Of a stretch of 64,000 nucleotides of DNA, positions 9,701 to 62,657 are shown piece by piece; the first letter of the stretch is position 1, and each line of letters begins with the position of its first letter. Source of the DNA: Eledone cirrhosa. Taxonomy: Eukaryota. The stretch spans positions 33,232,001-33,296,000 of the forward strand of contig OZ024745.1 of NCBI GenBank assembly GCA_964016885.1. Direction: 5' to 3'. The position numbers and the translations under genes are program-made. The notes beneath the pieces were generated by a model, which ran no database searches, was not told the origin of the DNA, and saw only the letters and a list, made by a program, of their open reading frames with translations.

Positions 9701-10580
9701 AAAGTGGATGTGTAAAAGACATGGCAAAAAGCACCCAGCACACATTGTCAATGTGGTTGGCGTTAGGAAAGGCATCCAGCTGTAGAAAACCTGCCAGAAA
9801 CACTCCTATACGGGCGAGACATGGTCACCCGGCCCAACCTGCCTCTAAATGGGATAAACCTATCCAACCTATGCGAGCATGAAAGATGGACATTAATCAA
9901 TGGTGATGATGATATATATATATATATATAAATTCAAGAGCAAATGACATATATAGGAATATATCAAACAATACACAGAAGATAATTTCTTAATGGCAAT
10001 AGAACTATGGTTCATCTTTGAATGGTGAAGTTCAAAATGGTGAGTCAGAATCATCAGCAAGAGAGAGCTTAATCCATACGAACTCACACATCTAAGCAAA
10101 TCTAAAGAATTTAAGGAATTTAAAAACATGTATTAGGGTTGATACAACTGACTAAACCTTTCAAGGCAGGGCTTCAGCATGGTCCCAGTCCAATGATGTA
10201 AGCCAGTAAAAAAATAAAATATTAGATTCAGCTGATACAACCCTTTCCTTGGGCTAAGTACATATATATATATTAGAAAGTGAGATTTTTTTACAAAATG
10301 AAAAATAACTGAGGTGTCCTACACGAGTGAAAGTCTAGAGAAAAAAAGATGAAATCGAAAATGCAACTGGAGTCTTATTTAAAAAAAAATATATATATTT
10401 ATTTGGTTCATCACAAATGTGAGAAAAACCACCAGACCCTCCATCTCAACTCTACTTTTGAAAAGCAGAAGAACTGTGAAACCAGTAAAGGAACCAAATA
10501 AATATATATATTTAAAAAAAATAAGACTCCAGTTGCATTTTCGATTTCATCTTTCTCCCCCCCCCCTCTCTCTCTCTCTC

Positions 10581-10620
<40 letters not shown>

Positions 10621-13600
10621 CAGAAACTGCTAACTTACATTGTCCGGTGTTGAATCGTGCTTGTTATTGTTTTTTCTGAAAATCTGTTCTTCAAGTTCCC
10701 TAACACTCTCATTAAATTCTTGTAGCTCTTTGTAGAATGTTGAGTAAACAATTAAAGCTAAGACATACTGTAATAGAATAGCAACATCTTTACTGGCATG
10801 TTTAGCAGCTGCCACAGTGATACCATCACCCGGTAGAACTTTACACACATCTTCAACATACACATCTATAGAAATAAAATACAGAGTGAGAAAATGTTTA
10901 CTCTTATATAAAAACAAAGTAATTATCAATAAGAACTTATGATTAGATACTTTCTTGTTTTGTTAACAACTCTTTTGTTCCTTCCCACATCCTAAATGCT
11001 ACAAAAGGTGACAGTCACTGCAACTCTAGCTGAACGGAATAGAATTCTAAAATAACAGGAATTATTATCAACAAACTATTTTTCATAGAGATCTAATAAG
11101 CAGATTAAAACTTAAGAAACTACACCCCTTACCTGATTGTATAGCAGCAGTCTGGATTGATTCTAAGTTAATTTGTATTTCTTGAGGTGATACATATAAT
11201 GATATTGCTGAAATAAAAACAAGAGGTGAGTAATGGTAAATAATGGCTTCTGATTTAGACACAAGGTCAACAATTTCAGGGCATTAATGGTACTTTATAT
11301 TATTGAACCCGTAAGGATGAAAGGCAAATTAACCTCGGCAGGATTTGAACTGTTACTACTGCTACTACACATTTTCAGGTAAGTGAATTGGAGTAACATG
11401 AAATGAGGCAGCATGGCTAAATAGTTAAAAAGTTTGTTTCACGACGATGAGGTTAGGTTCTGGGGCTAAGTAGTCCCTTGTGTGGTATCTTGGGCTTAGT
11501 CACACCTTGTGAGTGAAATTAGATGAAAAATGAAAGCCCCCCCCCCCCCCCCCCCACACACCTCTCAGATCAACTGTACCTGCATTCAAAGTGCTAGTCT
11601 TGTCACACACTGTGGCATGCCCAGAGCCCCCATTACAATTTTGGGATTGGAGGGGCTTAAGTATTTACAAGGTACACTCAAGAAGTTTTGAGACTTTTTC
11701 TTTTCAGACACTTTTAATTGACCTATGTAACTGTCACTCTAATACATCCTTGATAATAAGCTAACATGCCAAATCTTTTTATTTTTCAGGTTGAAGTTTC
11801 GAGCCGCTACAGCACTTTAAACACTATCTATCATACAGGTCTTGTCACAGCTGAATGGTTCCACAATGCAGTCAGGACGTGAGGATAACTTGGAGGCTTG
11901 ATATGCAATAAAGGTTTGTGTCAAGCTGAGCAAAAACGCTGTAGAAACCTATGAAATGGTCAAAACTGTTTACAGACTAGCTTTCATGAGCTGGGTGACA
12001 GTTTTCTGCTGGAACAAGAGGTTTCAGGAGGGTAGGGAGCAGGTGAAGGTTAACGAGGTGTGGCAGGGAGAGGGACATCAGGAGACCAAAGTTGGTTGAC
12101 AAAATCCGCAAATTTCTGAACAAAGACTGCCAATGTATCTCTTCTGATGATTGCTAAACAATTTGAAGTGGTTGAGGGCACTGTACACAGTCATTCATGA
12201 CGATCTGAACATGTGTAAAGTTTGTGCAAAGTTTGTTCCCAGGGTGGTCAATGAAGATCAAAGGCCAAGGCACTTTGATGACAGCAATGAGATGGTCGAA
12301 TTGATTGCTTCGAATCCAAATGTTCATGAGTCTCTGGTAACGTTTGACAAGAACTGGTCTACTGTTATGATCTAGAGACCAAGAGACAGAATATATTATT
12401 ACTGTGTTTTGATAATTTTTTCTACTTTTGGCACAAGGCCAGCAATTACCCAGTACATTACTGGTACTTTATTTTATCGACCCTGTAAGGATGAAAGGCA
12501 AAGTTAACCTTGGCGGGATTTGAACTCAGATCGTAAAGGGACGTAACTCTTTGCGTCAAAGCATGGCGTCTGACCCTCTACTGATACTGCCTTTGATAAT
12601 CATCATCATCATCATCATCATCATCAGGTTTAGCGTCCGTGTTCCACGCTTGCATGGGTTTGGACGGGGGTTTTCCCACTTGAGGCAAGAGTGGTTGTCT
12701 TGCTCGCATAGGACTGTCTGGCGGGTTTTCTACAGTTGGATGCCCTTCCTAACACCAACCACATTTACAGTGTGGGGCTGGGAGGTTTTTACCGTGTTGC
12801 CTACACGGCCACATTACAGCGTGGACTGTCTGGCGGGTTTTCTACAGCTGGATGCCCTTCCTAACACCAACCACATTTACAGTGTGGGGCTGGGAGGTTT
12901 TTACCGTGTTGCCTACACGGCCACATTTACAGCGTGGACTGTGTGTTTTTTGTCGTGACACCTACATGATCTCATTTGTTTCGGCCTGGATGTTGTGGGA
13001 CCAACATAACTGTACATTGAAAGGGGTGGTGTGGATGGGGTGGAGGTGGTGGGACGGGGGGGGTGTTTTGATAGAGATGCCTACTGACTGTAGTAGGTTT
13101 TTACTTTGTATAATGATTGACATAATAGCATTCATAGCGATTTACATTTTTGATGATATAACAATAGCTTGTTTTCTATTGTGTTTATTTGTACTTGTTA
13201 CTTATTTGAACAATAATTCATAATTTTTTAACTAACAAAATTTCAACAAGTTTCCCCATTATTGATGGGGCTTAAGCCCTAAAAGCCCCTTAGCACCGAA
13301 AGACTTGCTTGCTGAATTTCTTGAAAACTACATTAAGGATACATGTATTTATGGAATACTCAGTCCCTTACATGCTAATTTACTAAGCAAGCTGTTATAT
13401 TGATCGCATAACTGGAACACTCATCATTAAAAACTGACAGAGGTTCATTAATTTAAAAAAAAAAAAAAAAAAAAAATCGAAAGAATTAATTTATGATGAT
13501 TTGTTGTCTAAAGAAAGCAGAAGAGAAAAAAGTTATTTTTAGAAGAGACTAATTATCAACAAATATTCTTTAATAATAATATGTACAGCACTGTTTTATT

Positions 13601-16600: not shown

Positions 16601-19600
16601 CATTAGCACTACCCCATTACATCACTAGTGCACTCATTGAACCCTTGGCTAAGCTGCAAATGGCACCACCTCTATTCCATTACAACACTAGGGCACTATA
16701 TGAATAATAAACAGAAAGTAATTTGACCTTTTCTTTAGATAGTTCAACACATTTCTGTTTGAAGAGGACTTGCTTCTTTGCTTTAGCCAAATCTTCTTCA
16801 ATTTGGTTTTCTTTCTTCTCCAGGTTTTCTGCCATTAATCTATGAAATTCTTCATCATAGGAATCATCATCATCTTGATGGTAAATTTGTTTGGGAAAAT
16901 AAAAAAGTCAAGTCAGTTATTTGTCAAAATTGATATCATGACCAAGTATTTTATTAAAGAATCAGTGACAGAAAGGAGGTTATGTAACATTCATGATTTC
17001 CTCAAAGTCATTAACAGTTTAAATGAGGCAAATTATCTTTAATCTTCCTCATACCAAACCACCTGAAACTGTCCCTGGTTCTATGATACACAACTTTGTT
17101 TTAAAATCTTCCATCATAATTTTATGCAAGTACTGTTGTTATGTTCCAAACATCAGCTTAATAATAAGAAACTTAGTTTCGTCCTTCCCTCTTTCATTCT
17201 TCTGTAGCCCTAGAGTCCTTGCTTTCCCCCCCCTTTCCTGTTTTTAAATATTTGTAATGTTTTTTAAAATTATTTTATAGTCATTCATTCATGTCACTCA
17301 TTTATTAAGTTATGTGTATTTCTTTGACAGCTAAAAATATTTGTTTGTCTACAAATGGTTAACAAGAGTAATTCTTGATTATTTAAAAAAATTATTTGAA
17401 AATGAAAGGCAGTATCTTTAATAGACATATGGTAACATAACAAAAGGGTTTACCTGTAAGTGACTCCAGGTAGCAACGTGGCACACACAAAGCTCCACAA
17501 TCATAAAGTTGTTTACATAGCAGTGATAATGTATTCTTAAATGTCACAGATAATACAGACACAGGCATAACTGTGCAGCTGAGAAGTTGGTTTTGTAACC
17601 ACATGGTTTTAGGTTCTATCCCTCTCTGTAGTACATTTGGTGAGTGTATTTACACTGGGCTGACCAATGTCTTGTGCCTGTCAGTGAATTTGGTCTGTAA
17701 AGAACTCCAGCTTTGTGTGTGTGTGGGGTGTATGTGTAAGGGGGTACCTGTGTGTGTGTAAAGGGGTACCTGTGTGTGTGGGGTGTGTGTGTATGGGGGT
17801 ACCTGTGTGTGGGGTGTATGTGTGTATGGGGGTACCTGTGTGTGTGTAAGGGGGGTATGTGTGTGGGGTGTGTGTGTAAGGAGGTACCTGTGTGTGGAGT
17901 GTATGTGTCTAAGGGGGTACCTGTGTGTGTAAAGGGGTACCCTTGTGTGTATGGGGTGTGTGTGTATGGGGGTATCCGTGTGTGGGGTGTGTGTGTAAGG
18001 GGGTACCCGTGTGTGGGGTGTGGTGTGTGTGTAAGGGGGTACCCGTGTGTGGGGTGTGTGTGTGTGTATGGAGGTACCTGTGTGGGGTGTGTTTGTGTGT
18101 GTATGGAGGTACCTGTGTGTGGGGTATGTGTGTGTAAAGGGGTACCCGTGTGTGGGGTGTATGTGTGTGTATGGGGGTACCCGTGTGTGGGGTGTGTGTG
18201 TAAGGGGGTACCGTGTGTGTGGTGTGTGTGTGTATGGGGGTACCTGTGTGTGTGGGATGTGTGTGTAAGGGGGTACCCGTGTGTGTGGGGGTGTGTGTGT
18301 AAGGGGGTACCTGTGTGTGTGTGCACACATATATCAGTTTACCACATGCAGTATAAACAATATGACCCCAGTTTTATAGCTTTAAATCTTTAGCATTCAC
18401 ATTACTCTATATATCATCATCATCATCCTCATTTTACGTCCGCTTTTCCCTGCTTGCAAGGGTGAGACGGGAACTGATTCTGGCTTGATTTCTACAGTTG
18501 GATGCCCTTCCTAACACCAACCTCATTTCTACAGCTGAGTAAACTGGAGCAATGTGAAATAAAGTGTCTTGCTCAAGGAAACAACACATCACCCAGTCTG
18601 AGAATTGAACTCACAACCTTTCGATTGCAAGGCCAATGCTCTAACCACTAAGCCATGTGCCTCCATATACTATTATATTTTCATGGTAAAGGCTTTACCT
18701 CACATAATATCGAATCTATGAGATTTTGAAAGTATTTATTTTGAGAACAATACCTTAACATCAGTATGAGTGACCAGTTACAGCCAGTTTCAACAGAAAG
18801 AGGTAGAGAATTCTGGCCGGTTTTGGCCAGTTTGAACATTAAAGGGTTAAAATAATTATAAATGTAGAACAGTAACTCTGAATAAAAAAAAACCTATAAC
18901 AGCATAGAAAGCAAATGTTAAATGATGATGTAAAAAAGACCAAATCATATTACCCTTTGTTAAGAGTTCCTTATTGTTTGTTTGGTCAAGAAAGTTGGTA
19001 AATTGATGGCTGTCAAGAATAGCTTTGATTTCTAAGTTCTGTCCCATTTGTGTCTTCAGGATTTCCACTTGTGTTGCTTTGTATATGATTTCTTCAAGAT
19101 ATTCCTCAGATTTCATCTTAGCAGTATTGTATTCTGCTGTTTTGGATTTCACATCTTTAGTCATACATTGCAGTCTTTCTCTGGTGTCTTTCAACATCAC
19201 GAGTGCTTTACTAGTTCATAATAGAAGAGGAAGTAGAGAGATTATATGATGTGGACAGCAGACAATGACTGGAACATCTTTGATCATAGGTCTGCTCAAT
19301 GAAGACTGACCAGAGACCAACAATAGCAATGGCAACAACAATAGCAACATTTATCTAAATTTGATTAAACTTACTTAATTTTCTCCATTTTCTCTTTTCG
19401 TTCATTACTTTTCAAGCCAATGAGATATTGAAAGCAGTGAAATAGCTGTTCATAAGTCTTTGTTGATATGAAACTTCTTTGGTTATTTGAGGGAGAAAAT
19501 GTTTGTTGACGTTTCAACCTAAACACAGACAAACAGTGGTTTTTATATAACCTCATTTCAAATAATCTATCTCAAACTTAACCAAATAGAAAGCAACCAC

Positions 19601-22600: not shown

Positions 22601-24168
22601 TTAAGAAGAGCATTTGGCTGTAAAACATTGTCTAAAAAAATCCAGTCCAATCCATGCCAACATGGAAAAGTGGGTGTAAAAACGATAATGCTACTGCTGC
22701 TGACGATGATGAATCAGCATCACTAATAACAACAAGGTAAGTGTAGAATTTTTTTTTTCATAATTTGAAATAAACTTACTTTAAGGATCAATGCAACAGG
22801 ATTGTTCAAACTGCCAGCTTGTTTCACTGCCGTCTTCAGAACTTCAGACAGATCATTACCAGTAAACCATTCTATCTCTATAATTGTGGTGTTGGTCATT
22901 TCACATGTTAACATGTAGATGCTAACAATGTCACTGACAACACTACTGATTGTGAGAAGGTGACTCCTGTATAAATGACACAATATAAGACATATAGTAC
23001 AACTCATCATGGTAGTGATAAATACTCATTGTATATATATATATATGTGTGTGTGTGTATATATCATCATCATCAAACGTCTATCTTCCACGCTATGTAC
23101 ACACACACACACACATGCTTACGCACGTGCACAAGTATAGCTTTTTTTACAAAATGTTTTTTTTTTCCATTTCAGGTAGATGCACTCCATCATTCACTTT
23201 TCTAAAAAATAAATCATACACAAAACGCCAGCACCAACAGTTTTGCAAGAGATGTCAACATGAATGGACCTGTTATTTTTATCTAAAGACATTTTTTCCA
23301 ATTCCAACCCGCCCATCCCCTTAATCTATCTTATTTCTCATTCTTTCTTCGGATGAAGGACTAGCATCCGAAACGTTAAGACCCTCTTCCTGCTATATCA
23401 AGCATTAACCTAATATATCCGTTCCATATACTGTACAGATTGTGCTGTTATTTCAGTTTACCTTTTACATACATATATATATATACATTTTAAAAATTAG
23501 GATTGGTGCTCTGAAATAGCGATGTATACATGAATGTATGTATAGTATATTTGGCAATATACCGTATGTTTAATTCAAAACATTTTGAAGACCTTGCGCT
23601 ATCATTTTTAAAGTAGTGACTATGTCACTTCTTTTTTCAGCAAAGGAAGGGAGAGAAGCTGACAGATTCTGTTTCACACTGTTGGTGTTTCTCAAAGCAA
23701 CGTACTCCCCACCTCTGCGGAAAATTATAGAGGCTGGATTCTTATAGAATTCCAGTAATAAGCAGGAACTGATTATACAGAGCGATTGCCGGTCCTGCAA
23801 ATATTAAAAATTAGGAATGGTATATTGCCAAATATACTATACAGACATTCATGTATACATCGCTATTTCAGAGCACCAATCCTAATTTTTTATTTTTGCT
23901 GGATGGGCAATCGCTCTGTAGAATCAGTTCCTGCTTATTACTGGAATTCTATAAGAATCCAGCCTCTATAATTTTCCGCAGAGGTGGGGAGTACGTTGCT
24001 CTGAGGAACACCAACAGTGTGAAACAGAATCTGTCAGCTTCTCTCCTTTCCTTTGCTGAAAAAAGAAGTAAGTGACATAGTCACTACTTTAAAATGATAG
24101 CGGAAGGTCTTCAAAATGTTTTTAATTAAACATACCGTATATTGCCAAATATACTATACATACATTCA

Positions 24169-24610: not shown

Positions 24611-25656
24611 ACGTTTAACGTCCGTGTTCCACGCTTGCATGGGTTTGGACGGGGGTAGTCCCACTTGAGGCAAGAGTGATTGTCTTGCTCGCATAGGACT
24701 GTCTGGCAGGTTTTCTACAGTTGGATGCCCTTCCTAACACCAACCACATTTACAGTGTGGGTCTGGGAGGTTTTTACCGTGTTGCCTACATGGCCACATT
24801 ACAGCGTGGACTGTGTTTTTTTGTCGTGACACCTACACGATCTCATTTGTTTCGGCCTGGATGGCGCGGCACCAACATAACTTTACATAGAACGGGGTGG
24901 TATGGATGGGGTGGGGGTGGTGGTGGTGGGACGGGGTGTATTTTGTATATATATATGTATATATATGTATATATATATGTATATATATATACATATATAT
25001 ATACGTATATATATATATACATATATATATATACGTATATATATATATATATATCCAGTCCTAAATAAATGAGGTCGTGTAGGTGTCACAACAAAAAAAC
25101 CACACAGTCCACGCTGTAATGTGGCCGTGTAGGTAACACGGTAAAAACCTCCCAGTCCACACTATAAACGTGGTTGGTGTTAGGAAGGGCATCAAACCGT
25201 AGAAAACCCGCCAGACAGTCCTATACGAGTAAGACAACCAATCTTGCCTCAAGTGGGAAAATTCCCGTCTAAACCCATGCTAGCGTGGAAGATGGACGTT
25301 AAACGATGATGATGATGATGATGATACGTATATATATATATATATATATATTGTGAGTTCGATTCCTGGACCAGGCGATGCGTTATGTCCTTGAGCAAGA
25401 CACTTTATTTCACGTTGCTCCTTCTACCTGGAGTTGCGACCGATAGATAGTATTAGCAATTGGAAAGACCAACGGAAACATTGTTCCCTCGGTCCGATTT
25501 GACGAAAGTCGATCGTTCCTTTTTATATATATATATATGTATATATATACATAGTTACAATTTCAAGGAAATCGGTCTGATGTAACACCTCAAAAAACCC
25601 CTAAAAAGCTGAAAAAAACGCAGTTTTTCACCTATATATATGTATATATATATACG

Positions 25657-25690: not shown

Positions 25691-26433
25691 CGTATATATA
25701 TATATATATGTATATATATATACGTATATATATATATATGTATATAGAAAGGATGAATATAAAATGAAAGTGCTTTTTTTTAAAAAAGGAATTTATTAGG
25801 TATTGACATATGTTTCTGTAACAGACTGAATACCTATGTATCGCTGCTTGCGTAATCATATAATGTTAGCAAGTATTCGATAGCAAATGTATAATCAGTT
25901 GTCACTTCTTCAGAGATTTTGGATAAATTGGATAAAATCAGAAAAATTGAAGTATTTATATTAGTAATAGAGGAAGAAGAGAGGGGATAGTATATGACAG
26001 ATGGTAAATTAATTTACTGCTAAACAAGTATATAATGGGTTTCTAATGAGAATACCATGAGTAAATCTAAATAAGAATTTTGGGAGTGCCAATTTTAATC
26101 TCTACTTGACCAACTGGACAGTGGACAGGGCTGGTCATTTGGTGCAGTAGTATTAATTATAAAGTGTCAATTGGGGAAGGGGGAGATTTCGATTGCTACT
26201 AAATAACATCAATGCTAGTAGCCAGCTGGTATATGCATTAGGGAATTGAATCAAGAAATCAGAAATCTCATTTTATCTATAGCAGTTTGTATTAAAAGGT
26301 AAATAATAGAAGAGTTGATAGAATTAAGACTAATAAAGAATGTTCATATCTATTTTGACAATCAAACGGGGATAGAGACAGGCGTTCAATCCTGGTAGTA
26401 TTTATAATATGTATATATATATATATATATACG

Positions 26434-27121: not shown

Positions 27122-30100
27122 GTATATATATATATATACATATATACGTATATATATACATATATATATAGGTGAAAAACTGCGTTTTTTCAGCTATTTA
27201 GGGGTTTTTTGAGGTGTTACATCAGACCGATTTCCTTGAAATTCTAACTATGTATTAGTCAGTCTCTTCTTCATACCGTGAGGAAAGAAAATCCAACATT
27301 TTCATGGCCCGCATTAGGTGAACAACTTCATTTTTTCAGCTTTTTAGGGCGTTTTTGAGGCGTTACGTCTAAATCGCAATCAGAGTTATTTCCCTTGGAA
27401 TATATTGTATTATTAGAAGTCTAATCTCCTTATAATATATAACCAGCAATTTCTCTGTTTGTCTGTCTGTCCGACAGTAGAAGCGCGTGCGAATGTTTTT
27501 TGCACACGCGTAGAGAGAGAGTGAGAGTGAAAGAAAGAGACAGACTACGAGAGGGGGATAGCGGGAGGGAGAGAGGGAGAAAGAGGGAGAGTGAATAGAC
27601 GCTAAAACACGTGCGCGCGTGCGAATGTTTTTGGCGCACGCGTAGAGAGAGAGTGAGAGTGAAAGAAAGAGACAGACTACAAGAGGGGGATAGCGGGAGG
27701 GAGAGAGAGGGGAATTGAGGAGTGCTACAGAAACATATATACATTTCTGTGTCATCATCATCATCATCATCAACGTTTAACGTCCGTGTTCCACGCTTGC
27801 ATGGGTTTGGACGGGGGTAGTCCCACTTGAGGCAAGAGTGATTGTCTTGCTCGCATAGGACTGTCTGGCAGGTTTTCTACAGTTGGATGCCCTTCCTAAC
27901 ACCAACCACATTTACAGTGTGGGTCTGGGAGGTTTTTACCGTGTTGCCTACACGGCCACATTACAGCGTGGACTGTGTGTTTTTTTGTCGTGACACCTAC
28001 ACGATCTCATTTGTTTCGGCCTGGATGGCGCGGCACCAACATAACTTTACATAGAACGGGGTGGTGTGGATGGGGTGGGGGTGGTGGCGGGACGGGGTGT
28101 ATTTTGTTAGAGATGCCTACTGGCAAGGCGGGTCTTCTCTGTTACTGAGTACCGCCAAAGGTCACGGTCCAGTGACATTGTCTTGGAGAGGTGTAAGTGT
28201 GTGAGGTCGGAGTTTATCAGCTCATCCCATGTTTTTCTAGGTCTGCCTATTCCGTGGCTACCGTCTATCTTTATTGCCCTGCACTTTGTAATACAGCTAT
28301 CGACTTTCATGCGCATCACGTGTCCATACCAACGCAGCCTTCTCTCGAGTAAACAACATCTGATCCCTCTTATCTCTAATTTTTTCCTTAGTTCGTTTAT
28401 GCTTTGCCGTTCACGTATATTACTGTTACACATCCAGCGGAGCATGCAAGCTTCGTTCCTCTCTAGTCTGCGTATATCCTCTGCACACAATGCCCAGGTC
28501 TCACTACCATGCAACATTGCTGTTCGTATGCAGGCATCGTACAACCTGCCTTTCATTTTTAGGGAGAACCCTTTAGCAGCTAATAGTGGTATAAGCTCTC
28601 TGAACTTTTTCCAACCAGTTCTGACTCTAGCTACAGTACTTTCAGAGCACCCTCCCCCACTGCTGATTTTATCGCCCAGGTAACGGAAGCTGTCCACTAT
28701 TTCTATAGAACCCTCTGCGCAATTGAAAGAGCTAGTATTTTGTGGGCACTTGCTGCTACTTATTGCACCAGAACACCGGCCACATGTAAAGTCTATGTTC
28801 TTAGTTAGCTTACCTGTGATCCCACTACATCTTTTATGCACCCATACTTTGCATTTAGGACATAAGATGGAGTTTCTACCTACGCCTTTCCTACATACCG
28901 AGCACGACCATTTCCCAGAAGGGACCGCCGCCTTGTTTTCTTTCCTACAAACTAGAACTTTGGTCTTAGCCAGGTTAATTTTAAGTCCTTTTGACTCTAG
29001 GCCGTGCTTCCATGTTTGGAATTTCTTCTCTAGCTCGGCCATTGATTCCGCTATGAGTGTCAGGTCGTCTGCGTATAGGAGTTCCCGTGGGCAGCCTGTC
29101 TTGAACTCCTCTGTTATAGCCTGAAGGGCAATAATAAATAGTAGGGGGCTGAGAACAGAGCCCTGATGGACGCCAACTTTTACGCTAAACTCTTCACTAT
29201 ATTCGTTGTTAATTCTAACCTTGCTGACTATTTCTTTATACATGGCTTGTATAGCCCTCACAAGCTATTCGTCAACGCCTAGTTTTCTAAGAGCCCACCA
29301 GATAATGGAGCGGGGGACTCTGTCGAAGGCTTTCTCCAGGTCGACAAAAGCTAAGTAGAGGGGTTTACCTTTAGCTAGGTACTTCTCCTGTAGTTGTCGT
29401 ACTATGAAAAGAGCGTCTGTGGTGCTTTTGCCTGACACAAACCCGAACTGCATTTCATCTAGATCAATTCTCTCTCTGATTAGTTGCGCTATTACTTTTT
29501 CCGTGACCTTCATGACCTGGTCGATTAATTTAATGCCTCTATAGTTACTCCTATCTAGGGCGTCTCCTTTACCCTTATAACAGTTAACGATGATGCTGCT
29601 ATGCCAGTCCTTCGGAACAACCCCATCCTGTACGACTTGGTTAACTATGCGGGTGACCATGGTGTGTCCCACCGTGCCAGATGCCTTCAGCATCTCAGCA
29701 ACTATTTCCGAAGGCCCAGCCGCCTTACCAGTCTTCATATCCTTGATTGCCTTACTTATTATACTCCCCTCGACTAACACTGCTGGTCCCTCTATCGGGT
29801 CGATATGGGGGAGACTGTCTTTCTCCCATTTATTCTCCTCATTTAGTAGCCTTTCATAGTAACACTTCCAAGCTACCTTCTTATCAGTGTCGGTGAGGGC
29901 AAGTATGCCATCATCGTTAAGTACACACTTCTCCCCGACAATATCACGGTTTTCCTTGACGTGTGTGTAATATATATATATATACACACACAGAAATATA
30001 TATACATTTCTGTGTGTGTAATATATATATATACTAGCAGAAAACCACACGGTAGGCGGTTTTCTGCTAGTCTATATATATAAAACTGAGGATGTCTGTC

Positions 30101-30749
30101 TGTGTGTGTGTGTGGGTGAGTGTCAATCCTAAAACTCGAGAAGTACCCAACCGATTTTTTTCAAACTTAACATGTGTATTACTTATGTTTCAGGGAGTGT
30201 TATGCACATACAATTCAACTTTTTGATCCCCTAGAGCCTGCATTAGTTGAAAAACTGCGTTTTTTCAGCTTTTTAAGGTTTTTTTGAGGCGTTACGTCAG
30301 ACCAATTTCCTTGAAATTGTAACTATGTATTAGTCAGTCTCTTCTTCATACCGTGAGCAAAGAAAATACAACTTTTTTATGGCTTCGGACCCGCATCAAG
30401 TGAAAAACTTCATTTTTTCAGCTTTTGAGGGCTTTTTTGAGGTGTTGCGTCTAGCCGATTTCCCGAAATTTCAAGGCATATTATGCACATAAAAAAAATT
30501 GCTTTTCTAGATCCCCTAGGGCCCGCATTAGGGGAAAACCTGCATTTTTCCTGTTTCATCGAGGAAAATCTTATCCAGCCATCAAGAGTATTCGGTTTAT
30601 TTTCTTTACATATTGTCCAGGCATGCAGTCTTTCCACGATTAGGTCTGTTGGCGGCCCGCGTTCCAAAATACCTTATCCCGTGCAATGCTGGGTACCACT
30701 GCTAGTATATATATGTGTGTGTGTGTGCATATATGTGTGTGTGTGTGCA

Positions 30750-41200: not shown

Positions 41201-44200
41201 ATGAAATTGAAATGTATGTTTATTTTTGTTGTAGCACAAAGTAATGTTTGTTAATTTGTATGGTTGAAGTTAAACATAAAAAGGTTACAAAAGGAATGTG
41301 CCATTGTGTCAGGCCCAAAGCAGGCCGGCAGGCCAAAGTGCAAATCTCACCGTTACACATTGTACGTGTCGTTCCTTCGGAGTTCAAGCAGCAAGAGACA
41401 GATTCTTCAAATCCTTGCGGGGAATTTCTCCCTCAGGGCGCGTAGGAATACATTCTCTTCTGCTGGCACCGATTGGCTGAACTGAGCCAAATCACGCATA
41501 GAGAATGTATGTGAGCCCGCAGAATGTAGGTCACTACAGTATTTATTCAAGAACAGATACAGATTAAAGAGTATATTAATTGATTATAATGCTAATTTTG
41601 TTACCTTATAGTCAACAAAACACAAAATAGACTGACATCTTATCCCAGGGTGAAGTATCTTTCAATAGTTTATTTTCAGTTGGAAAAGAATTGACTACAG
41701 AGTTGTGAGACAGATGAAAATTAAGTCGAGAAAGTTACAGTGTAACAAAGGTAAATTTTAATGTATTTATATTATTATTATTCAAATATAGTTTGAGTGG
41801 GGAAATTGACAGCAGAATTGGTAGAGCACCAGACCTAATGGGGTTAACATATTTTCATCCTTTTGAAGTCAATAAAATACAAGGTGGCATATTGGCAGAG
41901 CAGTTAGAACATTGGATAGAATACTTTGTGGTATTCATTCTGGCTGTCATTGCTGAGTTCAAATCCCATTGAGGTCAACTTTACCTTTCATTGTTCCAAG
42001 GTCGATGAATAAATACCTGTCCAGTGTTAAGGATGTTGGACTTACGATCATACTGTCATGGGTTTGATTCCTGGACTGGGTTTTGTGTTGTGTTCTCAAG
42101 TAAAACACTTCATTTGATATTGCTCAAGTATACTCAGCTGAAAATGAATATCAGCAACAGCTGGGAGTTTAACCTTGCGATGGGCTGCGGCCTGTTCAAG
42201 TGGGAGTCTTGCTACTCTCAGTTGTTTAATTCCATGGAAACTGGGATAAACACCTGTCTGATGAGCCTCTTGGCTTGAAACAGACTTTAGACATTTTTTT
42301 TCTATATCTTTTTCTTATTTCTTCTTCTTCATTCTCTCTTTTTCTCAGGAAGAAATCAGCTGTGTTCAGACATGGAGAGGGGATGGGCTCTGCCATGTTT
42401 AAAATGCCCAAGACACACTGTATGTCATTACAGAGCCCCTATGACTTCTCCAGGAATTATGTTACAATACATACAAAATACAATACTAGGTCAAGTACTT
42501 TGATTGTTCCTATCACATGATGCCTAACAGCTGATTCTTTGGTTATCAATCTGTTGTCCTATCAACATTGCCATCTATGATCCTCAGCAATAATCTAGGA
42601 ATAACAATAATAAACCAGAAACTTACCTAAAGTTGACATGAAGGCATTTATTAATGAGGTCTTTCCAGACCCTCTGGGACCACTTAACAGGAAATGGAAA
42701 CCATTCTGTGTGAAATTATTTATGAAGTATTTTATAGGGATCTGAAAATAAAATATTTAATAGGATCCTTAAATATAAATTTTCAATTGGAAACAAAAAA
42801 TAAAATACTAACTCTTAATGTCCTGTACTACATGAAACTGCATTAGCAAAATATTCTTGAAAAGTACAAAATAGTACTATGATTGTAATATGTTAAACAG
42901 TCTTTACTTTAACACTGTAAACTTCTACAATGACCTATCCACTAATAAAGACACTAGAAACATTTGAATTAAGTAACCCTACTTTAAAACATTTTCTATG
43001 AAACCATTAGAAGATGCTAAGAGTTAAGCAGAGTTCTCAAAGTACAAAATTAAATAGGGAGTAAAAAATACAATATTAACCTTTCTAAGGAATAACACTA
43101 TTTTGAAAATATTTTGAATAATCAAATAATTTTGAAAATAATCAAGGATTTAGAAAGATTTAGAAATATAAACTAACTTTCTTATTAAGCTGGTGTTTGG
43201 AACATAACTTACTTAAGGTTTTTATATAAAATTAAGATGAAAGGTTTTTAGAAAAATATAAATACTTGAAAATAAACAGGGGCAGTATCAAATACTTTGG
43301 TAGCAAGAGGATTAAATAGAGACCAAAAAGTACAATAACATATATATATATATAGTGTAGGTGAATCGTTCTTTGTTATATATATATAATTAAGAATGGT
43401 TTCTTGAAGCGAATCAGGAAGAAACTACAGTTAAATAAGGTACTCATTGCATTAGTAGAGAAGATAAATAATTATTTCATATAGAAATGACTTCTACAGG
43501 ACTATAACTGTTTCATTTGTTTGAAATCATCAGGAATATTCCTAATGATTTCAAACGAACAACAGTTCTAGTCTTGTAGAAGTCATTTCTATATGAAATA
43601 ATTATTTATCTTCTCTACTAATGCAATGAGTATCTTATTTAACTGTGGTTTCTTCCTGATTCGCTTCAAAAAACCATTCTTATATATATATATATATATA
43701 TGACGATGATGATGATGAGGACAACTTACTGTTCTTAGTGTGTATACATATTCTCTGTTGAAGTTATCTTGTATAACCGGAGACTCTTCAAGTGATCTAG
43801 AAAAATTAATCGTCTTGAATTTATCAAATGCATTGTGAAGTTCAGAGTGGAAGGATGAAAGGCAAAGTCAACATGGGTGGGATTTGAACTCAGAACATGA
43901 TTTATTTAGTCCAATGCTCTACCAATTCTCATCAATCACTCATCAATATTTATCCCTTTAGCGTTTACATTACTCTATATTTACTATTATATTTTCACAG
44001 TAAAAGCTTTACCTCACACAATTATCTCACATAATATCAAATCTATGAGATTTTGATATTATTTATTTTGAGAACAATACCTTAACATTAGTATGAGCAG
44101 TTGGTTGCAGCCGGTTTGAACAGAAAAGAGAATTCTGGCCAGATATGGCTGGTTTAAATGCTAATGGATTATATCTTAATATCATCCTCATCATATCATT

Positions 44201-47200
44201 TAACATCCATTTTCCATTCTATTGACCTCTAACACATGTTCCTGCACTCTACAGAGTACACCGGGTGCATTTTATCATGGCACCAGCACTATTTATATAT
44301 TTATAAGATAGTCAAAGGAGGAAGACATTATCTTTAACCATTACAGGACCTTCCAGACTGGTGAGAATGATGCCTTGCTTGAACATCCAGGAAAAACTTG
44401 TAACAGAGAGGGAACTGTAGGAATGATCCAAATCCTATAAAATGGAATGAACTTTGCTAAAGGGCGCCCATAGAACCAAGTGGTGATGAAGATGATGGTG
44501 GAGGTGGTGGTAGTAGTGTTGTTAAATGACACAGAAAGAAACCAGGACTTTTTCCCAAACTTACTTTATGTTCCAGTTCTCCCATTCTCCTGATTCATCA
44601 ACAAAAAAGTCAAACAAATAAACATCATTTTCATCTTCAGGACATCTAAAATATAGAATTATTTCTGAAGTAAGTTTTTGAAATAAAAGGAAGAAATTAG
44701 TATTTAAAATTAAAACATTTTCATCATTGCTATATATATCATATATCAAGCCTTTTGGTGCTAAGGGGCTTTTGGGGTTTATGCCCCTCCAATGTGGAAA
44801 CTTGTTGAATGATCTTAAAGTTTTGTTAGTTAAAAAATTATGTATTACTATTCAAATAAGTAACAAGTACAAATAAACACAATAAAAAGCAAGCTTTTGT
44901 TATACCATCAAAGATATCAATAGCTGTGAATGTTATGTCTATCATTATCAAAACACACAATGTATTTTTAAAAAGCAAAAAACAAATACTTATAATTTAT
45001 TTCAATATACTTGTGCTCTGGTTTTTACTACATTGATTTCCTATTGGCTCTCTGTTAGTACGATGATGTTTTTAATTTCTTTCTTAGTCTTGTATTGGGG
45101 ATAAAAGGCGCGAGCTAATAATAATAATACACATGCACAATATATGTGTATTATACACTAAAGGGGAAAGTTGATTACATCAATCCCAGTTCTTTACTGG
45201 TACTTAATTTTATCAACCCAGGAAGTATGAAATGTAAAATTGCCTTCAGTGTGTTTTGAAGTCAGAATTTAAAAGGTCATAACTAGATTCCACAAAGCAA
45301 CCTGTTCAATGCTTTAATTATTCTGCCAATCCACTGTCCTAAACATCACCTTAAGAATGAGAAAGTTGGTTATATTACTAAATCTCACGGAATTATCCAT
45401 TTTCGAAATGATTTGAAAATTAAAGGCAGTGTTTTTCATTAGAAATATGGTAATAAAATAATTAAATAATACTAGAGTTCTTTTTTTTCAAGTTTATACT
45501 TACAGATTGGTTCTTAATTTCAGAATGAATTCATTGAAGTGGAGTCTATCATTGCTGGAGAGATGGCCACCAAAAGACCACAACAGGCTGAATATAAAGA
45601 GCTTCTTAATATGACTATCATTAGAAATTGTGTGGCAGTTGGACAGTAGAACTGTTAGTATCTGAAGAGATGTAATAATCATACCAACTTCCGTAAAATG
45701 GACCGAGTCCCTGGCAAATACAAGAAGTGATTTAAAATGTTGTCATTAACTTTAAAGACAGTTCAAATTGATTGTAGTATTTGAAAAGATAAACATGCAA
45801 ATATATGTAAGGAGAAAAAAACGTTATTTAGTTTCAATGATGTATTTGTATAAATTAGATTTATATTTTTAACTGTTGGTCAATCAATGATAAATGTTGA
45901 TTGCCAGCTAAATTATTTATAAAAATATACTGAACCGAAAACCAAACCAAACAGTGAGTGTGTTTTACTAGTTTTTGGCAATATGAGGACATGACCTTCT
46001 CCAAATATAACAATAGTTATTTAATTTATATTTGCAATGTGTATGCAAATATATATGGAATGTGTATGCAAATATATATGGATCTGTCGATCAATTGGTT
46101 ATTGATTAGGCGAAACCTGCTGATGAAGCCACATGCGCCAATTGTGCACTGTAGCATAATAAATGCAGACTGTGGATGCTGTGCACTCTCTTGCTGCATT
46201 AGGTGTGGCCAAAACTCGAGTACAAGTATAGATTTATGGTACCCATTTACGTGTGTTGTATTGAAGTAAATAACCTTACCTATTGAGGATGCTGAGATGC
46301 AACCGGTACTAGCAGTGAAACTTATGCTAGTCCCTTCAACTTATATATATTGATGAGAATACAATAATGTTAGAAATGTATAGGAATAATTTCTCATGTT
46401 TTACTCTGTGATGGAAATTGAAATTATTTCCACTTCACACTTCATTCCATAGGCTTAAAACTATCTTTGGTTATGTAATATTACATAACTATACAGTCCA
46501 CCTCCTTAGGTCACAGCCTCATTAGATGTACCAAAACATTGACTGTTAAAAACACTGTGTGTGTGTGTGTGTGTGTAATTAAAAAAATATATACAAGTAT
46601 CTCACTTTATTTCTGTCTTGAAGAATTGAATGACAGAATCCATACTGGTTTGGTAACATTGCATTAGAATCTGACAATAGAAGAAACATTATTTACTCTC
46701 TTGCATTAAGGAAAACAAGACCAGATTATATGAAATGCAATCTTTATTGTGGTGAACTGGAAGTGATGTCAAATGTAATTTAGTAACGTTATGGACCTAA
46801 GTCTTTAACTCTTTAGCATTTACATTACTCTATATTTACTATTGTATTTTCACAGTAAACACTTCATCTCTATGCTCTATGAGATTTTGATATTTATTTT
46901 GAGAACAATACTTTAACATAAGTATGAGTAGCTGGTTACGGCTGCTTTGAACAGAAAGAGGTGAGAGAATTCTGGCTGGATATGGCCGGTAAATGCTAAA
47001 GAATTAAAGTTAGTAGAGTTATCAGCTTGATTCAGAAGTTTCTGGAAACAGAAGAATAATCAGAGACTTTACCTTTGAATTGTAATTTCTAAATTTCTAA
47101 TACTATTTCATATTTTATTTAGCCAGAGAGTCAGTCAAGTATACCAACCCAGTCACACTTACCTCTGCAATATCATAGCCATTCTTGGATGAATTAATCT

Positions 47201-50200
47201 AGACAAAAACAAAACAGAAAACAAACAAAAAATATGATATCAGTAACATTGATATACATAATATCTGGTGTAGACATACTGGAGCTTGATATCAAAGGAC
47301 CCTTATTTATATATAAAGGACCCTTATTTTTATATAAAGGACCATTTTTATATAAAGGACCATTTATATATAAAGGACCCTTAACTTCTGATGGAGCTGT
47401 AGTTGAGCTGTCCTGATTTGAGAGAGATGTGAAGAGAGGGGGCAAGAGAAAGGGGGGAGAGAGAGGGAGAGGTAACACCAACCTCAGTACTGAATTGATA
47501 TTTTATTTATTGATGTCAAAAGGATGAAAAGCAAAGTTGACCTCAGTAGGATTTGAATTAGGAGTGCAGTGAGCAGGAACAAATACTGAGGCATTGTGTT
47601 GGTGACAGGAAAAGCACCCAGTCAACCCTGTAAAGTAGCTATGCTGGTGACATGATGAAAAAGCACCCTTGAACATCTAACAGCCCACCCTGTTAGATGG
47701 TTGTTTTCGTGCCACAATAAAAAGCACCCAATCCTCACTGTAACATGGTTGGCATTAGGAAAGGCATCTAACTGTAGAAACCAAACCAAAATACAGATCT
47801 GTATGTGGAAGACATGGTTACCAGACTTCAATTGTCTCCTAATGTGAAAACCTTTTGAACCCATGCAAGTGTGGATGATGATGATAATGTCAGTTTGCTG
47901 TTTTACCAGTCATACTAGGTTAAATTTAAAACAACCATACCTCTCCCCAAACAAAATGTGTCCTAGTGCCACTGCTGCTGCTGCCTTATAAGTAGGTTGG
48001 GATATTTGCCCATTTCTCCGACATAAAATGGGGGGGTGGAGACATATTTGGATTATCTTATATTTATACATATATGGTACATACTTGAAGACCTTTATAT
48101 TTCTTTGCTTTGATCCACGATTTGGTCAACACTTCCCATGTAACAAGACCATCAAAATAAACCATACCCTGAAAAATAATTCATACAAATATTGGTTTCA
48201 GTTATAGGTACAGAGCCTAAAATGTTGGCAGAGTGAACAGTACTTAACTTGGTATTTTATTGACTATAGCAGGATGAATGGTAAAATCTTGGCAGGATTC
48301 TATCACAGAATGTAATGAAATGGAACTAAATATTACAGAGCATTGTTTGATAATTTACTGATTCTGTCAGAAATATTGCAATATTCAGAGATGACTAGAG
48401 TTTGCAATGGTAAGAAATGGTTTAAGAATCCTTCTTGTGACTTAGATAAAGATAGGTTGTATATTAGAGATAATATATAATCTAGAACATTCTCTACCAA
48501 TGTTTCTCAAAGTGGATTCCATTAAAAAATACTGAAGTTTTAATAAAATTTAATAAAAAATTATTACATAAAAAAAAAAAAATTCTCTCTCTAGTAATAT
48601 TTTTGTACCATATAATGTCTTATTAAAATTAGAATGGTGGGGATTGTTTGCAATATATGGTTATGGATTCTGTAATTTGGGGAAAATCATATAAGGGTTT
48701 TATGACAAAATATGTATGGGGACCACTGTTCTATACTGTGATATAAACCATACCAATTTAGCTATGGTTGTTGGTGATGCTGAGTCTATAGAATCTGTTT
48801 CTATAAAGGTCTTCACGTTGCCATTCATTGCAATTCTGTCTCCATTCTTCAATTGGATCTGGGGAGAAAAACAGACAAAATTTGTTTCAAAATTTAATTT
48901 ACATAAAAAAATACATGTCAATAACGATATTTTAAACTGATTTAGTTTAAAGTCACCCATAGACTTTACAGGTTGTGGGTCTGATTCTAGGACATGTCAA
49001 TGCATTGTGTTCTTGAGCAAGATGCTTCATTTCACATTGATTTTCACAATAGAACCATGGCTCCTACAATTAAAACATCCAAGATATGAGATGCAACTTC
49101 GTAGGAAGCCAGATAAACCTATGTAAGTGTGAGCTGTAACAACAATAACATAGCCTTTAAAGGCTTTCCTATAACACAAGGAAACCTTTATATAATCACT
49201 TGGTCTGCTAAAAAGAGAAGCCAAATCATGCCTTAAAGAAAGGAAACATTAGAAATTGTAGCCCTAGATACACTATGAAAAAAAGAAAAAAAAAAGCCAG
49301 ATGGTTTGAACTAAGTATCTAAAGAGTTAGAATAAATATTACAAGGAATTTTATCTAATGCCCTAATGCCAAATTACGACATTAGAAAACTATAATTCAA
49401 CATGAGACAAGCTATTACTGATTGTGTATGTTGGACCTCTAACAGTTCTGACAATGAGGGTTCTGGTTGTTTGAACAATGGAACAGACTTCTTGAGAAAT
49501 TAATGTACATATGGCTGAGTATTCCACTGACACACAGCATTATTGTAGTTCTGATGGAGATTCAACAGGCCCTATGAGAAGGGGTTCAGCTGATACTTTG
49601 TTCCGGGGCCCAAGAGCTAAGAAGGCCCCACAGCAACCATGCAACATTAATTTTGAGAAAAATCTTTGCCTACATTGGGCCCCAAAGGGGTCTTGTACTT
49701 CCTTGCAAAACTTCTCTTGTAGGCCCTGAGATTCAGCATGTGAATGAGTGGCATAGTTGGCTAACCCTTTGAATTACATGCCGGTACAACTCACATTTTT
49801 GCCAGCTGAGTAGATTGGAGCAACGTGAAATAAAATATTTTGCTCAAGGGCACAACACGCTCACAGGAATCAAACTCACAATCTCACAATTGCAAGTTGA
49901 ACACTTTAACCACTAAGCCAGATGGCTTCACAAAAAAGTGGACAGACATCTACAGGGATATGAATCATACATCTCTCATATGCTGCATAAGCACATTTAA
50001 CTATTATGACAAAAGGACTCTGGCTATCATTGGTTGTATTATTGTTAAGTTACCTGTTTGTTGCTGAACATACTGGTCAACTGGTCAAGCCAGGTCTCAT
50101 TTAAAGGTGAATCTATTAGAAACCAGGTTTTGAGGTTGTTCTGAAATTGAAAATACAAAAGTTCAGTAAAAATTGATTTACCAAATGACTGACTTAAACT

Positions 50201-54931: not shown

Positions 54932-54968
<37 letters not shown>

Positions 54969-57900
54969 AATGAACCAATTCCGTCAGAAAAGTCCAGGAA
55001 AAAAGAGTGCTCTATGTAGGTAACAGAGCTTAATAGTTATGTAATAAACAACATAAGGCAATTATTTCATTTACCAGTGGTTTCTTAAAAGCAAAAAAAA
55101 ATTGCTTTCAATCATCAGAATGAAAAAATCCTGGAGTATTTATTGATGTTGGATTTTAAAAACAAAAATGCAATCTATATCGTATGTATATAGATATAGA
55201 TTGCATTTTTGTTTTTAAAATCCAACGTCAATAAATACTCCAGGATTTTTTCATTCTGATGATTGAAAGCAACATTTTTTTGCTTTTAAGAAACCACTGG
55301 TAAATGAAATAATTGCCTTATGTTGTTTATTACATAACTATATATATATATATATGCAGAAATCCCAGCAATTACCCTCTATTGGGTAAATGCTAGTACA
55401 AAAATATCATTTATTAATGTGTGGTACAATCTAAACTGGGATATATAAATATGAGGGTTCCACTTCGAATATTTAATTTAAAAAAATGGTATGTGCACAC
55501 CCACACATTTAAAACCCCCAGTTTAGCTAGGTCTAAAGCCTTGGCAAAAACAATCTGGGATCTGAAACGTGCTAATATTGAATACACAGTACAATGGTCC
55601 GTCCATACCGGAATGAAAGCTGCCCCTGTGAACTATGTTTGGCGGAGGTAATTGAAATAGTGACCGGAAAGGACCTAAATTCCCAGCATGATAGGATATT
55701 TAATTGCAAACATAAGATTCTAAAAATCTTCGCTAAATACAAACTGGACTAGAACAAGATTCAATCCCTAATGCCCAGGTTTTACTATATCCTATTTGGT
55801 ACATTTCCTGTGGAATTTGAACTTTTCACACCCAATGGATTCAGTAATATTCAAAGCAATCCCATTTTCTTAATTCCTTTCCTCCTTACCCACTCTAGCC
55901 TACTCTTAACCTCTGCCTTATCTTTCTCTGTCCCTCTCCTTATACCTTCTCTACTCCCATATATGGTAAACATCAAAACCTTCACCTATAACAATGGTCA
56001 AAGAATAATTATTCCACATCACAGCCCACAGATTGATAGTGTGAAACTCTTTACTCCCACTCCCTCTCATCTCTACTATCACACTAACTGACTCTATCTC
56101 ATTCTATTTTTAACATATTTACATATTCTTAAACGAAAATCTCATCACTGAATTATACCCCGTAGTGAATAGGTTTTCTGAAGAAGTGTAATAAATAATT
56201 AAGTATTTCATATGATTGAACAATATATATTGTAGTCAGCATAAGTAGACAATTTATAATAGACACAGAATCATATGTCAAAGCAAATAAACCCATAATC
56301 TCTTCATGTCAACATTTTATTTTTCTTGGTGCAATACTTGCTTATATATATATATTGTATTGTTATTTACTTACAGTTGAAGTTCAGCTAAAGAGACAAT
56401 CTCTAATAATCTTCCTGCCAGAATATTTCCACACTTGAAACCAGCAGCAATAAAATATCCCCTTAAAATACAGTAAATATCTGGTTTAAGGAGAGACACT
56501 GTTCGAAATACTGATTTAATCTTCCGAGCAAATTGCCAGTTTGATTTGCCAGTTTGATTCAATGGTGCAGTCATAAAGAAGAAAGTTCTTGGATTCACTT
56601 CAAATGTCTACAGGAAAATCAGTAAATGGGAGAATGTAAAACCTGAGAAATGTAATAAATATTTTCTCCTTACATTTTATTAACTTGTACAACATTTGGG
56701 AAATGAAAGGGTAAAATATTATACCTACTACATGGTCAATACATTAACCCTTTCATTACTATATTTCTAATGAAAATATACTGTTTCAAGGAATTAATAA
56801 AGAATTTTGAATGATTTACTAAAACCATTAATTATTTCATTCTTAAGATAGTTTTATGTAAGAACAATTTGTTACAAATACTATGCTAGAAGATTTTAAT
56901 TTAACTCTTTCATTACTATATTTCTAAAAAGATACACTGTCTAGCCTCAGCCACTACCAACACCATCTCCATTACCAATCCATTAAATAAGTTTCTAGTG
57001 ATACAGGCTGTACTAAACATAGTATACAAACAGTATATCTTAAGGGACTCTGCTTCATGGTGCTGGCTGACGGGATGGAGAAGACATTGTCCCGGAGGAT
57101 GGCAAGGGAGATGTACTGGAACAGCCACTCCACCTCGTGTGGCTTGGAATTGCAGGCAGCCAATTCCACTCTGATAGCTGTGAGCAGGGATATGGTCTAG
57201 GGGCCAAGAATGCCTGAAGTCTCCACTGCCACAGGCTCAACCATGAACCTATAAGAGAGAAGCCGATACTTGGACAATTTACCTTCTTAGGCCTGGTCGG
57301 CAGTGAAGCCTGAGCTGGATGAGGAGCCAACTCTCGCGAAACAAGAAGATTGTCATGTTGTCTGGCATGCAGTCCAGCTTCACTATCTTAAGCTGGGAAG
57401 AGAAGCCTGCCTATGTATTTTAATTAATTTTGAAAATCATCAAGAATTTGGAGGGATTTAGTTAAAACAGATTCTGTCATTATTAAATTAGTATTTGTAA
57501 CATAACAAAGGCTCTTAAAAAAATATAAGCAATTTAAAAAAAAAAATCATAGAACCAGGGTCAGTTTTAGTAGGTTGGTATCAAAAGGGTTAAGTACCAG
57601 TTAATGTATTGGAGTTGATATAATTGACTAAAAATCTGAGAAGGTGGTAGCCCAGGATGACCACAGATGAATGACTAATAAAAGAAAAAAAAAAAAAAAA
57701 TCAAAGAAAAGAAAATATATGTCATCATCATCATCACCATTTAATGTCTATTTTTTTCCACATTTGCATAGTTGAAACCACATAAGCTTCTTACCTATAG
57801 TGATATATATTTTATGTATAAAAACAAACTAGCAGGAGACTCAGGAATAAATCTCACGCAAGATGGTTGGATATCATCCATGAGCTTGGCTGGTCTCGCT

Positions 57901-61626: not shown

Positions 61627-61774
61627 CTATAATTTAAAAAAAAACAACAAAAAATTAATATATATCATATATATAAATAAATCAGTAGGTACCATAAACA
61701 GGAGTTCATTGAGTGTAAATAGTGTGCTTAGATGATACATTCTTTTGTGTATATATATATATATATATATATAT

Positions 61775-62101: not shown

Positions 62102-62217
62102 ATATATATTATACATGTATAATATATATATATCATCATCATCATCATCATCGTTTAACGTCCATCATCATCATATATATATATATAAGTAGTTCCACAA
62201 CAGTTAATTCACCATTT

Positions 62218-62259
62218 CCGAGAACAATTTGTTTCACCTTACACGGATCATCAACTCGA
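62218..62259 (-). ncRNA. degenerate hammerhead ribozyme
   Basis: tcgag-TTGATGA-tccgtgtaaggt-GAA-acaaattGT-T-ctcgg. Confidence 0.55.
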
Positions 62260-62621
62260 TCTAAAACTGTTGTGGAACTACTTCTACCAAACTCGTCCCA
62301 CGGATTGAGTGCTCTACTACTACCACCAGTGCTCTGCTAATATATATATATATATATACATATATATTATATATTATATATATATTATTTAGTGTCTAAA
62401 TTCTGTATTATGGAATCATGCTAATATCCGTTAAAATTATACAACTAGTGTACACCTGTTTTTAAAGTGATGGCTGTTTTAATAATTACAGAGAATGCTG
62501 ACTCCATTAAAAAATGAGTTGCAAGAGATGTCAACATGAATGGACTTGTTATTTTTATCTAAAGACATTTTTTCCAATTCCATCCTGCCTGTCCCCTCCA
62601 TCTTACTTATTTCTCATTCTT

Positions 62622-62657
62622 TCTTCTGATGAAGGACTAGAATCCGAAACGTTAAGA
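62622..62657 (+). ncRNA. minimal hammerhead ribozyme (PLE type); mutated copy at 23346-23381
   Basis: tctt-CTGATGA-a-gga(ctagaa)tcc-GAAACGTT-aaga; loopless palindromic helix III. Confidence 0.65.

Follow-up and report, generated by a model that had tools for sequence, protein, structure and literature searches.

Hammerhead ribozymes (HHRs) recur throughout the introns of a 64,000-nucleotide stretch of the Eledone cirrhosa genome (assembly GCA_964016885.1, contig OZ024745.1, positions 33,232,001 to 33,296,000 of the forward strand), here called the window, in which a first-pass annotation had listed 12 HHR sites and had ascribed them to many unrelated elements. The window has a GC content of 35% and abundant (TA)n. 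All 12 listed sites trace to type I HHRs, with core positions 3–8 nt off the coordinates given by that annotation, and they belong to nine families, A to I. Most lie at or near the 3′ ends of what we read as Penelope-like elements (PLEs) of the Hydra and Neptune types. The elements, in window positions, are as follows.

10259–10554, plus strand: family G, with an inverted arm (10259–10409) and a direct arm (10414–10554); minimal type I HHR, core 10458 (plus) with U3:A8; 3′ end of a Neptune-type PLE.
23099–23465, plus strand: family A, copy 1; minimal HHR, decayed, with U4>G at 23350; 91% to a Neptune-type element in locus L202.
23496–24167, units on both strands: family C, a 318-nt non-coding unit followed by (TA)n, inside the TA tract of family A copy 1; inverted full unit 23496–23809 (minus; core 23695, U3:A8), partial unit 23817–23886, and unit 23887–24167 (plus; core 24001).
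25742–26422, minus strand: family H, 3′ end of a very young Hydra-type PLE, 98% to locus L286; core 25913 (minus), CTGAAGA, with a 90-nt arm II and predicted cleavage after 25805.
43377–43696, fold-back: family F, 3′ end of a Hydra-type PLE; core 43533 (minus) intact, core 43537 (plus) decayed.
46081–46350, plus strand: family I, long-arm type I HHR, core 46120, with G12>A in the window copy.
54967–55341, fold-back: family B, 3′ end of a Hydra-type PLE; tail 54967–55032, intact cores 55118 (minus) and 55256 (plus).
55343–56355, plus strand: family D, an old Hydra-type 3′ end comprising a broken GIY-YIG endonuclease (55343–55735), a 3′ untranslated region (UTR) and a decayed long-arm HHR, core 56178.
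62187–62338, minus strand: family E, a stub with a short inverted arm and a tail, 3′ end of a Hydra-type PLE; core 62254 (minus), C3>U.
62519–62743, plus strand: family A, copy 2, 3′ end of a Neptune-type PLE; intact minimal HHR, core 62626, with a palindromic ACGU where helix III would be.

To recognize the motifs we used a descriptor requiring a type I core, a helix I of at least 3 Watson–Crick pairs and a helix II within 45 nt, with a palindromic helix III permitted; the strict core was CUGANGA or UUGANAA, and the relaxed core added UUGAUGA. Seven motifs are intact by the strict core (10458, 24001, 55256 and 62626 on the plus strand; 23695, 43533 and 55118 on the minus strand), and 62254 (minus, UUGAUGA) is accepted by the relaxed core only. 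Against these 7 strict and 8 relaxed matches, 200 local dinucleotide shuffles averaged 0.13 and 0.31, and none reached the observed count; the earlier claim of hammerhead cores at the listed sites is thereby borne out. Eight of the 12 listed sites are descriptor-positive and the remaining four are family members that fail it: 23350 (plus) through U4>G, 46120 (plus) through G12>A, its family having a helix II arm of 84 nt, 56178 (plus) through GAAA>GAAT, the arm in its family measuring 83 nt, and the site at 25801 (minus), part of a complete core that begins at 25913 and has an arm of 90 nt. Family-intact forms of 46120 and 56178 exist elsewhere (families I and D). Six cores in the window are decayed. 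As for the sites labelled degenerate at the outset, 23350, 46120 and 56178 are indeed decayed, whereas those at 10455 and 23658 carry a U3:A8 core, a known compensatory variant, and that at 25801 is undecayed. Two candidate readings were rejected along the way: 25801 as a relic with a deleted core, given the complete core at 25913 with its 90-nt arm, and 46115 as a circularly permuted core, the site being a decayed long-arm type I HHR.

All five inverted duplications that had been reported were located in the window (10259–10554, 23496–24167, 43377–43696, 54967–55341 and, with short arms, 62187–62338). TA runs adjoin 12 of the 14 element ends examined; the end at 10554 runs first into C and CT repeats, and that at 62740 into ATC repeats. 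The GIY-YIG remnant noted near 55360 is likewise real, frameshifted and confined to 55343–55735, but it belongs to the older element ending at 56355 and not to the palindrome at 55256. A comparison of the window with Rfam gave no hammerhead family at the gathering threshold, nor at E ≤ 10 among the 150 rows listed of 152.

The descriptor was composed after the sites were known, and the independent test is a sample from elsewhere in the genome, made of 60 evenly spaced 10-kb stretches (600 kb). There the strict descriptor found 43 matches in 23 of the 60 stretches against 1.05 in 20 shuffles, an approximately 40-fold excess, a few of the sample matches being simple repeats (the L157 pair). This density of 70 per Mb (bootstrap interval 42–103) amounts to 1.2–3.1×10^5 motifs in 3.0 Gb, with an estimate of ~2×10^5 (~200,000) for the whole genome. 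Because long-arm forms add more (5 in 600 kb, versus 0.1 in shuffles), ~70 per Mb is a lower bound. Exact-pattern counts over the whole genome agree. The commonest HHR group has 82,783 matches, family F 31,149 and family E 7,373, each with 0 for the reversed-pattern control, and family H together with its sister has 4,556, with 5 for the control; the commonest group appears 14 times in the 600-kb sample against 16.6 expected from its exact count. The exact family C core has 297 matches, and a first look gave 1832 candidates for family G. The density is thus a genome-wide feature, as had been suspected, and the claim of many unrelated families also stands, with nine in the window and with 144 incidental matches falling into 34 clusters, 17 of them singletons. 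The commonest group, which has no copy in the window, comprises many subfamilies differing in helix II, and at least 10 further HHR families (L137, L138, L146, L153, L181 and others) are missed by short descriptors because their helix II arms are 49–97 nt long.

The motifs keep a consistent relation to TA tracts. A (TA)5 lies within 200 nt downstream of 35 of the 43 sample matches, compared with 16% of random positions, and within 200 nt upstream of only 30% of them; the matches sit directly upstream of (TA)n, in keeping with the association originally proposed. The enrichment of inverted copies holds as well: 4 of 25 matches have one at most 800 nt upstream, against 28 of 2000 controls, in a rerun of a first test for which masking had left 13 matches (3/13 versus 11/1500). 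A fixed 3′ end followed by a TA/CA run was seen in 19 of 19 copies of family A (end located in 19 of 20), in 19 of 21 of family B (end located in 21 of 25), and in 15 of 15 of family H where the end was located. Across families, copies are variably truncated at the 5′ side and have an optional tail at one end and an adjacent inverted arm; the fixed 3′ ends fall in two positions, with or without the tail, joined to (TA)n, and elements are nested in each other's TA tracts. Helix I as a general pivot of the fold-backs was considered and rejected, the junctions being scattered in the 57 of 144 matches that have an inverted match.

What are these elements the ends of? Seven of the nine families (A, B, D, E, F, G and H) run upstream, in other copies, into sequence coding for reverse transcriptase (RT) or GIY-YIG, of Hydra type in five (B, D, E, F and H) and of Neptune type in two (A and G), which upholds the PLE origin put forward earlier. 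Both RT and endonuclease (EN) lie upstream of families A, B, D, E, F and H, and EN only upstream of family G; neither was found upstream of the HHR end for families C or I. The parent of family A (L017/L202) has DKG and a CxCCxxC Cys-rich linker ahead of GIY-YIG; we took a DKG motif with a CX2-5CxxC linker before the endonuclease as the Neptune marks, and L202 has both. Family G has a GIY-YIG remnant ~1.1 kb upstream in L120/L292, its upstream sequence being common also to L293 and L294. In family B, a microsatellite-rich 3′ UTR of roughly 3 kb precedes the HHR, with a Hydra-type frame upstream of it; the RT/EN frame is in L192, joined through L197 and L196, and the protein that L192 encodes is very similar to the Hydra-1_Obim sequence given in the supplement of PMC8557442. 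This similarity, with the helix III type that family B has in common with that element, points to an octopod host; a protein search with a host exon, which returned one weak fungal match, did not bear this out. Family D has a Hydra-type frame upstream in other copies too, family E has RT/EN in L393, L395 and L401, and family F has EN or RT/EN 2.7–3.9 kb upstream in L403 and L405. For family H, L286 holds the longest frame, an open RT/EN frame of 711 codons in a 5′-truncated element with an inverted arm, in which these Hydra marks can be read: DKT, CxCX5C, and CxxC and CxH flanking E and N; the N-terminus, where the RWK motif of the clade would lie, is missing from the copies recovered. Hydra marks are present also in L192 (B; linker and CxxC), L403 (F; linker), L409 (E) and the window remnant (D). 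An early impression from 14 incidental copies, that families E and F always start at helix I, was rejected by 60 position-ordered copies, many of which extend 500–600 nt upstream and some of which reach RT/EN. Most families thus appear, from their sequence, to be 5′-truncated ends of coding PLEs with fixed 3′ ends, tails and inverted arms. The best explanation of the whole, which we consider highly probable, is that type I HHR motifs stand at the 3′ ends of nine families of elements, seven of which continue into PLE RT/GIY-YIG.

The strongest rival holds that every family is a short non-autonomous element of its own, a retrozyme or a SINE-like one (short interspersed element-like), spread by way of small circular RNAs; in outline this is true of family C. 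The family C unit is 318 nt long and 36% GC, with a longest stop-free frame of 52 codons and one type I HHR, and so has the features by which we defined a retrozyme, namely a non-coding tandem unit of 170–400 nt with low GC and one type I HHR per unit. A 3′-end query found 30 copies: head-to-tail junctions occur in 18 of them and inverted arms in 20 (one spurious distant match removed), and the copies end near unit positions 282 or 318. Those with at least two HHR-bearing units are a minority, and some hold two full units. Three public runs of a single sample have contigs with TA-rich loose ends at both fixed ends of family C, and with a tandem joint going back 311. A 317-nt sister unit forms dimers and a 4-mer, and further tandem HHR units of 319, 469 and 490–517 nt lie in the flanks. 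Outside family C, however, the rival founders: it is refuted for families A, B, D, E, F, G and H by their continuation into RT/EN, and copies of E and F share 500–600 nt of upstream sequence. We therefore regard it as improbable for the set as a whole, and the initial view of short non-coding elements as their general nature falls with it, family C alone being shown to be a non-coding unit. The tandem units of 469, 490–517 and 317 nt, some with inverted dimers, are further retrozyme-like families (L192:1044–2497, L195:3448–4950, L205:5504–6020 and L291:4410–5360).

Family C itself appears to be a retrozyme-like tandem unit with PLE insertion anatomy, and it likely works like a non-LTR (long terminal repeat) retrozyme moved by PLE enzymes. 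Helix covariation among genomic copies, which had been named as a test, is present in the family C group, on hand-picked rows: 8 of 14 pairs change on both sides over 16 rows, including C3:G8 to U3:A8, and 92% of cells are paired versus 18–43% when slid. One copy, in L050, lies beside a broken RT frame, joined to it via an inverted fragment, an arrangement that reads as nesting. The notion that HHR cleavage sets the 5′ ends was rejected, a pile-up 5–22 nt past the cleavage site being a query-start artefact; in a 3′-anchored sample the 5′ ends spread along the unit, and many pass the cleavage site. No RNA dataset is listed as containing family C.

The introns that house these elements are probably those of a gene resembling dynein heavy chain, encoded by the minus strand with exons between 10633 and 61626. 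Weak Pfam matches fall in the expected order (AAA_6, AAA_5/AAA_7, AAA lid, AAA_8), and the gene is likely a divergent dynein heavy chain. Could the host have domesticated intronic ribozymes to regulate the pre-mRNA of this gene? Five of 13 arms lie in the host sense direction, including the intact cores 55118 and 23695. The proposal is nonetheless very improbable, as the window density (7 in 64 kb) is near the genome average of 70 per Mb, six window cores are decayed, and sense arms in palindromes would pair with the antisense arm.

Several observations weigh against the PLE-end explanation or weaken the evidence for it. Isolated motifs fold no better than shuffles (z = −1.6 to +1.5), and the three-helix fold is the minimum-energy structure for 55256 only; such unremarkable folding would be expected of minimal HHRs, yet it lends no support. 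Of the 16 covariation rows, 15 were hand-picked from 48 descriptor-passing variants and the window arms were added, a choice that favours pairing, and the relatedness of the rows inflates the shuffle control. The link of family G consists of an endonuclease remnant alone, and family I had no coding partner within 1.5 kb at 15 loci. No full-length element with a start codon, and no complete one with its open reading frame between two pseudo-LTRs (pLTRs), was recovered. Pfam recognized neither the GIY-YIG fragments nor the L286 frame; because of the latter, the clade assignments rest on motifs read by eye. That the motifs are chance matches in AT-rich, palindromic DNA, as the folding energies of single motifs and the few simple repeats in the sample might suggest, has next to no probability against the 40-fold excess, the covariation and exact counts of 82,783, 31,149, 7,373 and 4,556 for 0, 0, 0 and 5 in the controls.

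The elements probably entered TA microsatellites through target-primed reverse transcription. By inference from PMC11167929 and PMC8557442, the endonuclease would nick AT-rich DNA, and reverse transcription would begin internally on the RNA, downstream of the HHR and at either of two sites; because it starts there, even short stubs would keep the HHR. Reverse transcription would mostly stop early, leaving 5′-truncated copies, and a second cDNA primed on the other strand would yield the inverted arm. Family C likely borrows this PLE machinery, starting from a circular or multimeric RNA. Weak cleavage is predicted for HHR monomers and better cleavage for dimers or when a protein assists, and in host pre-mRNA the HHR would be masked by an inverted arm.

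Family H departs from the other families in its helix I. It accounts for 40 of the first 100 matches of the pattern that it shares with its sister, or ~1,800 copies; over 151 nt, six copies elsewhere match the one in the window at 100% identity. The sister family has a normal 5-bp helix I; compared with it, family H carries 8 inserted nt ahead of the core and another 7 just past the cleavage site, and 1 bp of the normal helix I is left, short of the normal form of a type I HHR. The strand past the cleavage site is instead complementary over 8 bp to a segment of arm II. Of 21 distinct copies, 19 preserve this complementarity in full, and 16 keep a distal pairing of 7 bp. No other family among the loci scanned has such a layout, and shuffles give 0.1 per 600 kb. 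It is conceivable, but in our estimate unlikely, that the family H HHR would be active in a new topology, with helix I rebuilt by a pseudoknot with arm II, and that together with family C it would make this genome the densest hammerhead library with a retrozyme–PLE link. Several points make activity less likely: the fold with arm II extended is the more stable one (−25.5 versus −20.7 kcal/mol, pseudoknot energy excluded), the distinct copies show no compensatory change in the 8-bp pairing, insertions near C3 impair HHR cleavage (PMC3088659), and HHR mutants leave insertion in vitro unaffected (PMC11167929). A template switch could also create the arm II complement without selection. A dead HHR in an active element is a likelier reading of family H than an active pseudoknot. 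A hammerhead with helix I supplied from inside arm II was not found in the literature covered, which excluded most subscription papers. A dispersed repeat (25547–25634, 27169–27371 and 30236–30453) lies inverted on the flanks of family H's TA tracts.

The window has other contents. A near-intact RT of LINE (long interspersed element) type with a PHD-like finger occupies 28107–30071 on the minus strand in two frames (Pfam RVT_1), with relatives in several loci. Minisatellites lie at 946–3322 (72 nt, 33 copies) and 7677–9756 (~48 nt, 44 copies), the latter derived from a piece of a dispersed repeat occurring across the window. A SINE-like repeat with many window copies has tRNA-like heads at 18594–18657, 49861–49922 and 63105–63162 on the minus strand.

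HHR motifs at ~70 per Mb are all invisible to Rfam here. At that density most long introns would contain such motifs and fold-backs, with possible bearing on pre-mRNA integrity and the supply of double-stranded RNA. Young, near-intact Hydra elements beside a 318-nt non-autonomous unit offer a test bed for PLE proteins moving retrozymes, and family H a test of whether the HHR matters to a spreading PLE. Should the combined reading of families H and C prove true, the genome would hold a denser natural hammerhead library than any recorded in the literature found, and a direct link between retrozymes and PLE enzymes. Published counts, made with other descriptors, include >6,000 HHRs in Acropora and 126,247 in axolotl, and the giant squid genome paper gives 235 Rfam hits; a cephalopod-wide HHR census was not found in the same literature, again with most subscription papers outside it.

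How do these families compare with known systems? First, many consensus HHR families per genome, mostly single motifs from truncated metazoan PLEs, have been described, with opposite-strand pairs 100–700 bp apart, an extra base after A9, a palindromic helix III and U3:A8, and with ~9,000 HHRs in Xenopus tropicalis and 4,000 in coelacanth, in a main text without Octopus (PMC4209133). The present families share the multiplicity, the opposite-strand pairs, U3:A8, the extra base after A9 and the palindromic helix III, but they differ in number (~2×10^5, with a different descriptor) and in that several have helix II arms of 50–97 nt.

Second, the octopus Hydra-1_Obim element has an HHR and a preference for (TA)n, and the Hydra clade as published comprises few families, with elements below 3 kb (PMC8557442). 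Shared with it here are DKT, CxCX5C, CxxC and CxH round a conserved E and N, (TA)n insertion, inverted 5′-truncated arms and tails, and in family B the helix III type of Hydra-1_Obim. Unlike the clade as described, the window by itself contains five or more families, whose copies number up to tens of thousands; 3′ UTRs reach ~3 kb and tails ~110 nt, and one family lacks a normal helix I. With the Neptune clade (PMC8557442), family A shares, on motifs, DKG, a Cys-rich linker, a minimal HHR with an ACGU palindrome, and microsatellite targeting.

Third, animal non-LTR retrozymes (PMC7229834; bioRxiv 10.64898/2026.07.22.740005), which the latter source derives from PLE pLTRs, share with family C a short non-coding unit with one HHR and low GC, dimers or short multimers, and coexistence with PLEs. 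Family C differs in that it is mostly dispersed as 1–2 units in (TA)n, its 3′ ends being fixed and its copies having a tail of 36 nt and inverted arms; its copy here lies in an intron, and it is known here from DNA alone.

Finally, in PAc, a Poseidon element of Anolis carolinensis (PMC11167929), two internal starts of reverse transcription explain ends with and without the tail, and targets are AT-rich with both strands extended, much as here. The PAc HHR is protein-assisted, overlaps the start of the open reading frame and is dispensable for insertion in vitro, and PAc belongs to a different clade from the families of the window. Set beside these systems, the phenomenon is real and mostly known; what is unusual is mainly its abundance, together with the two odd families C and H.

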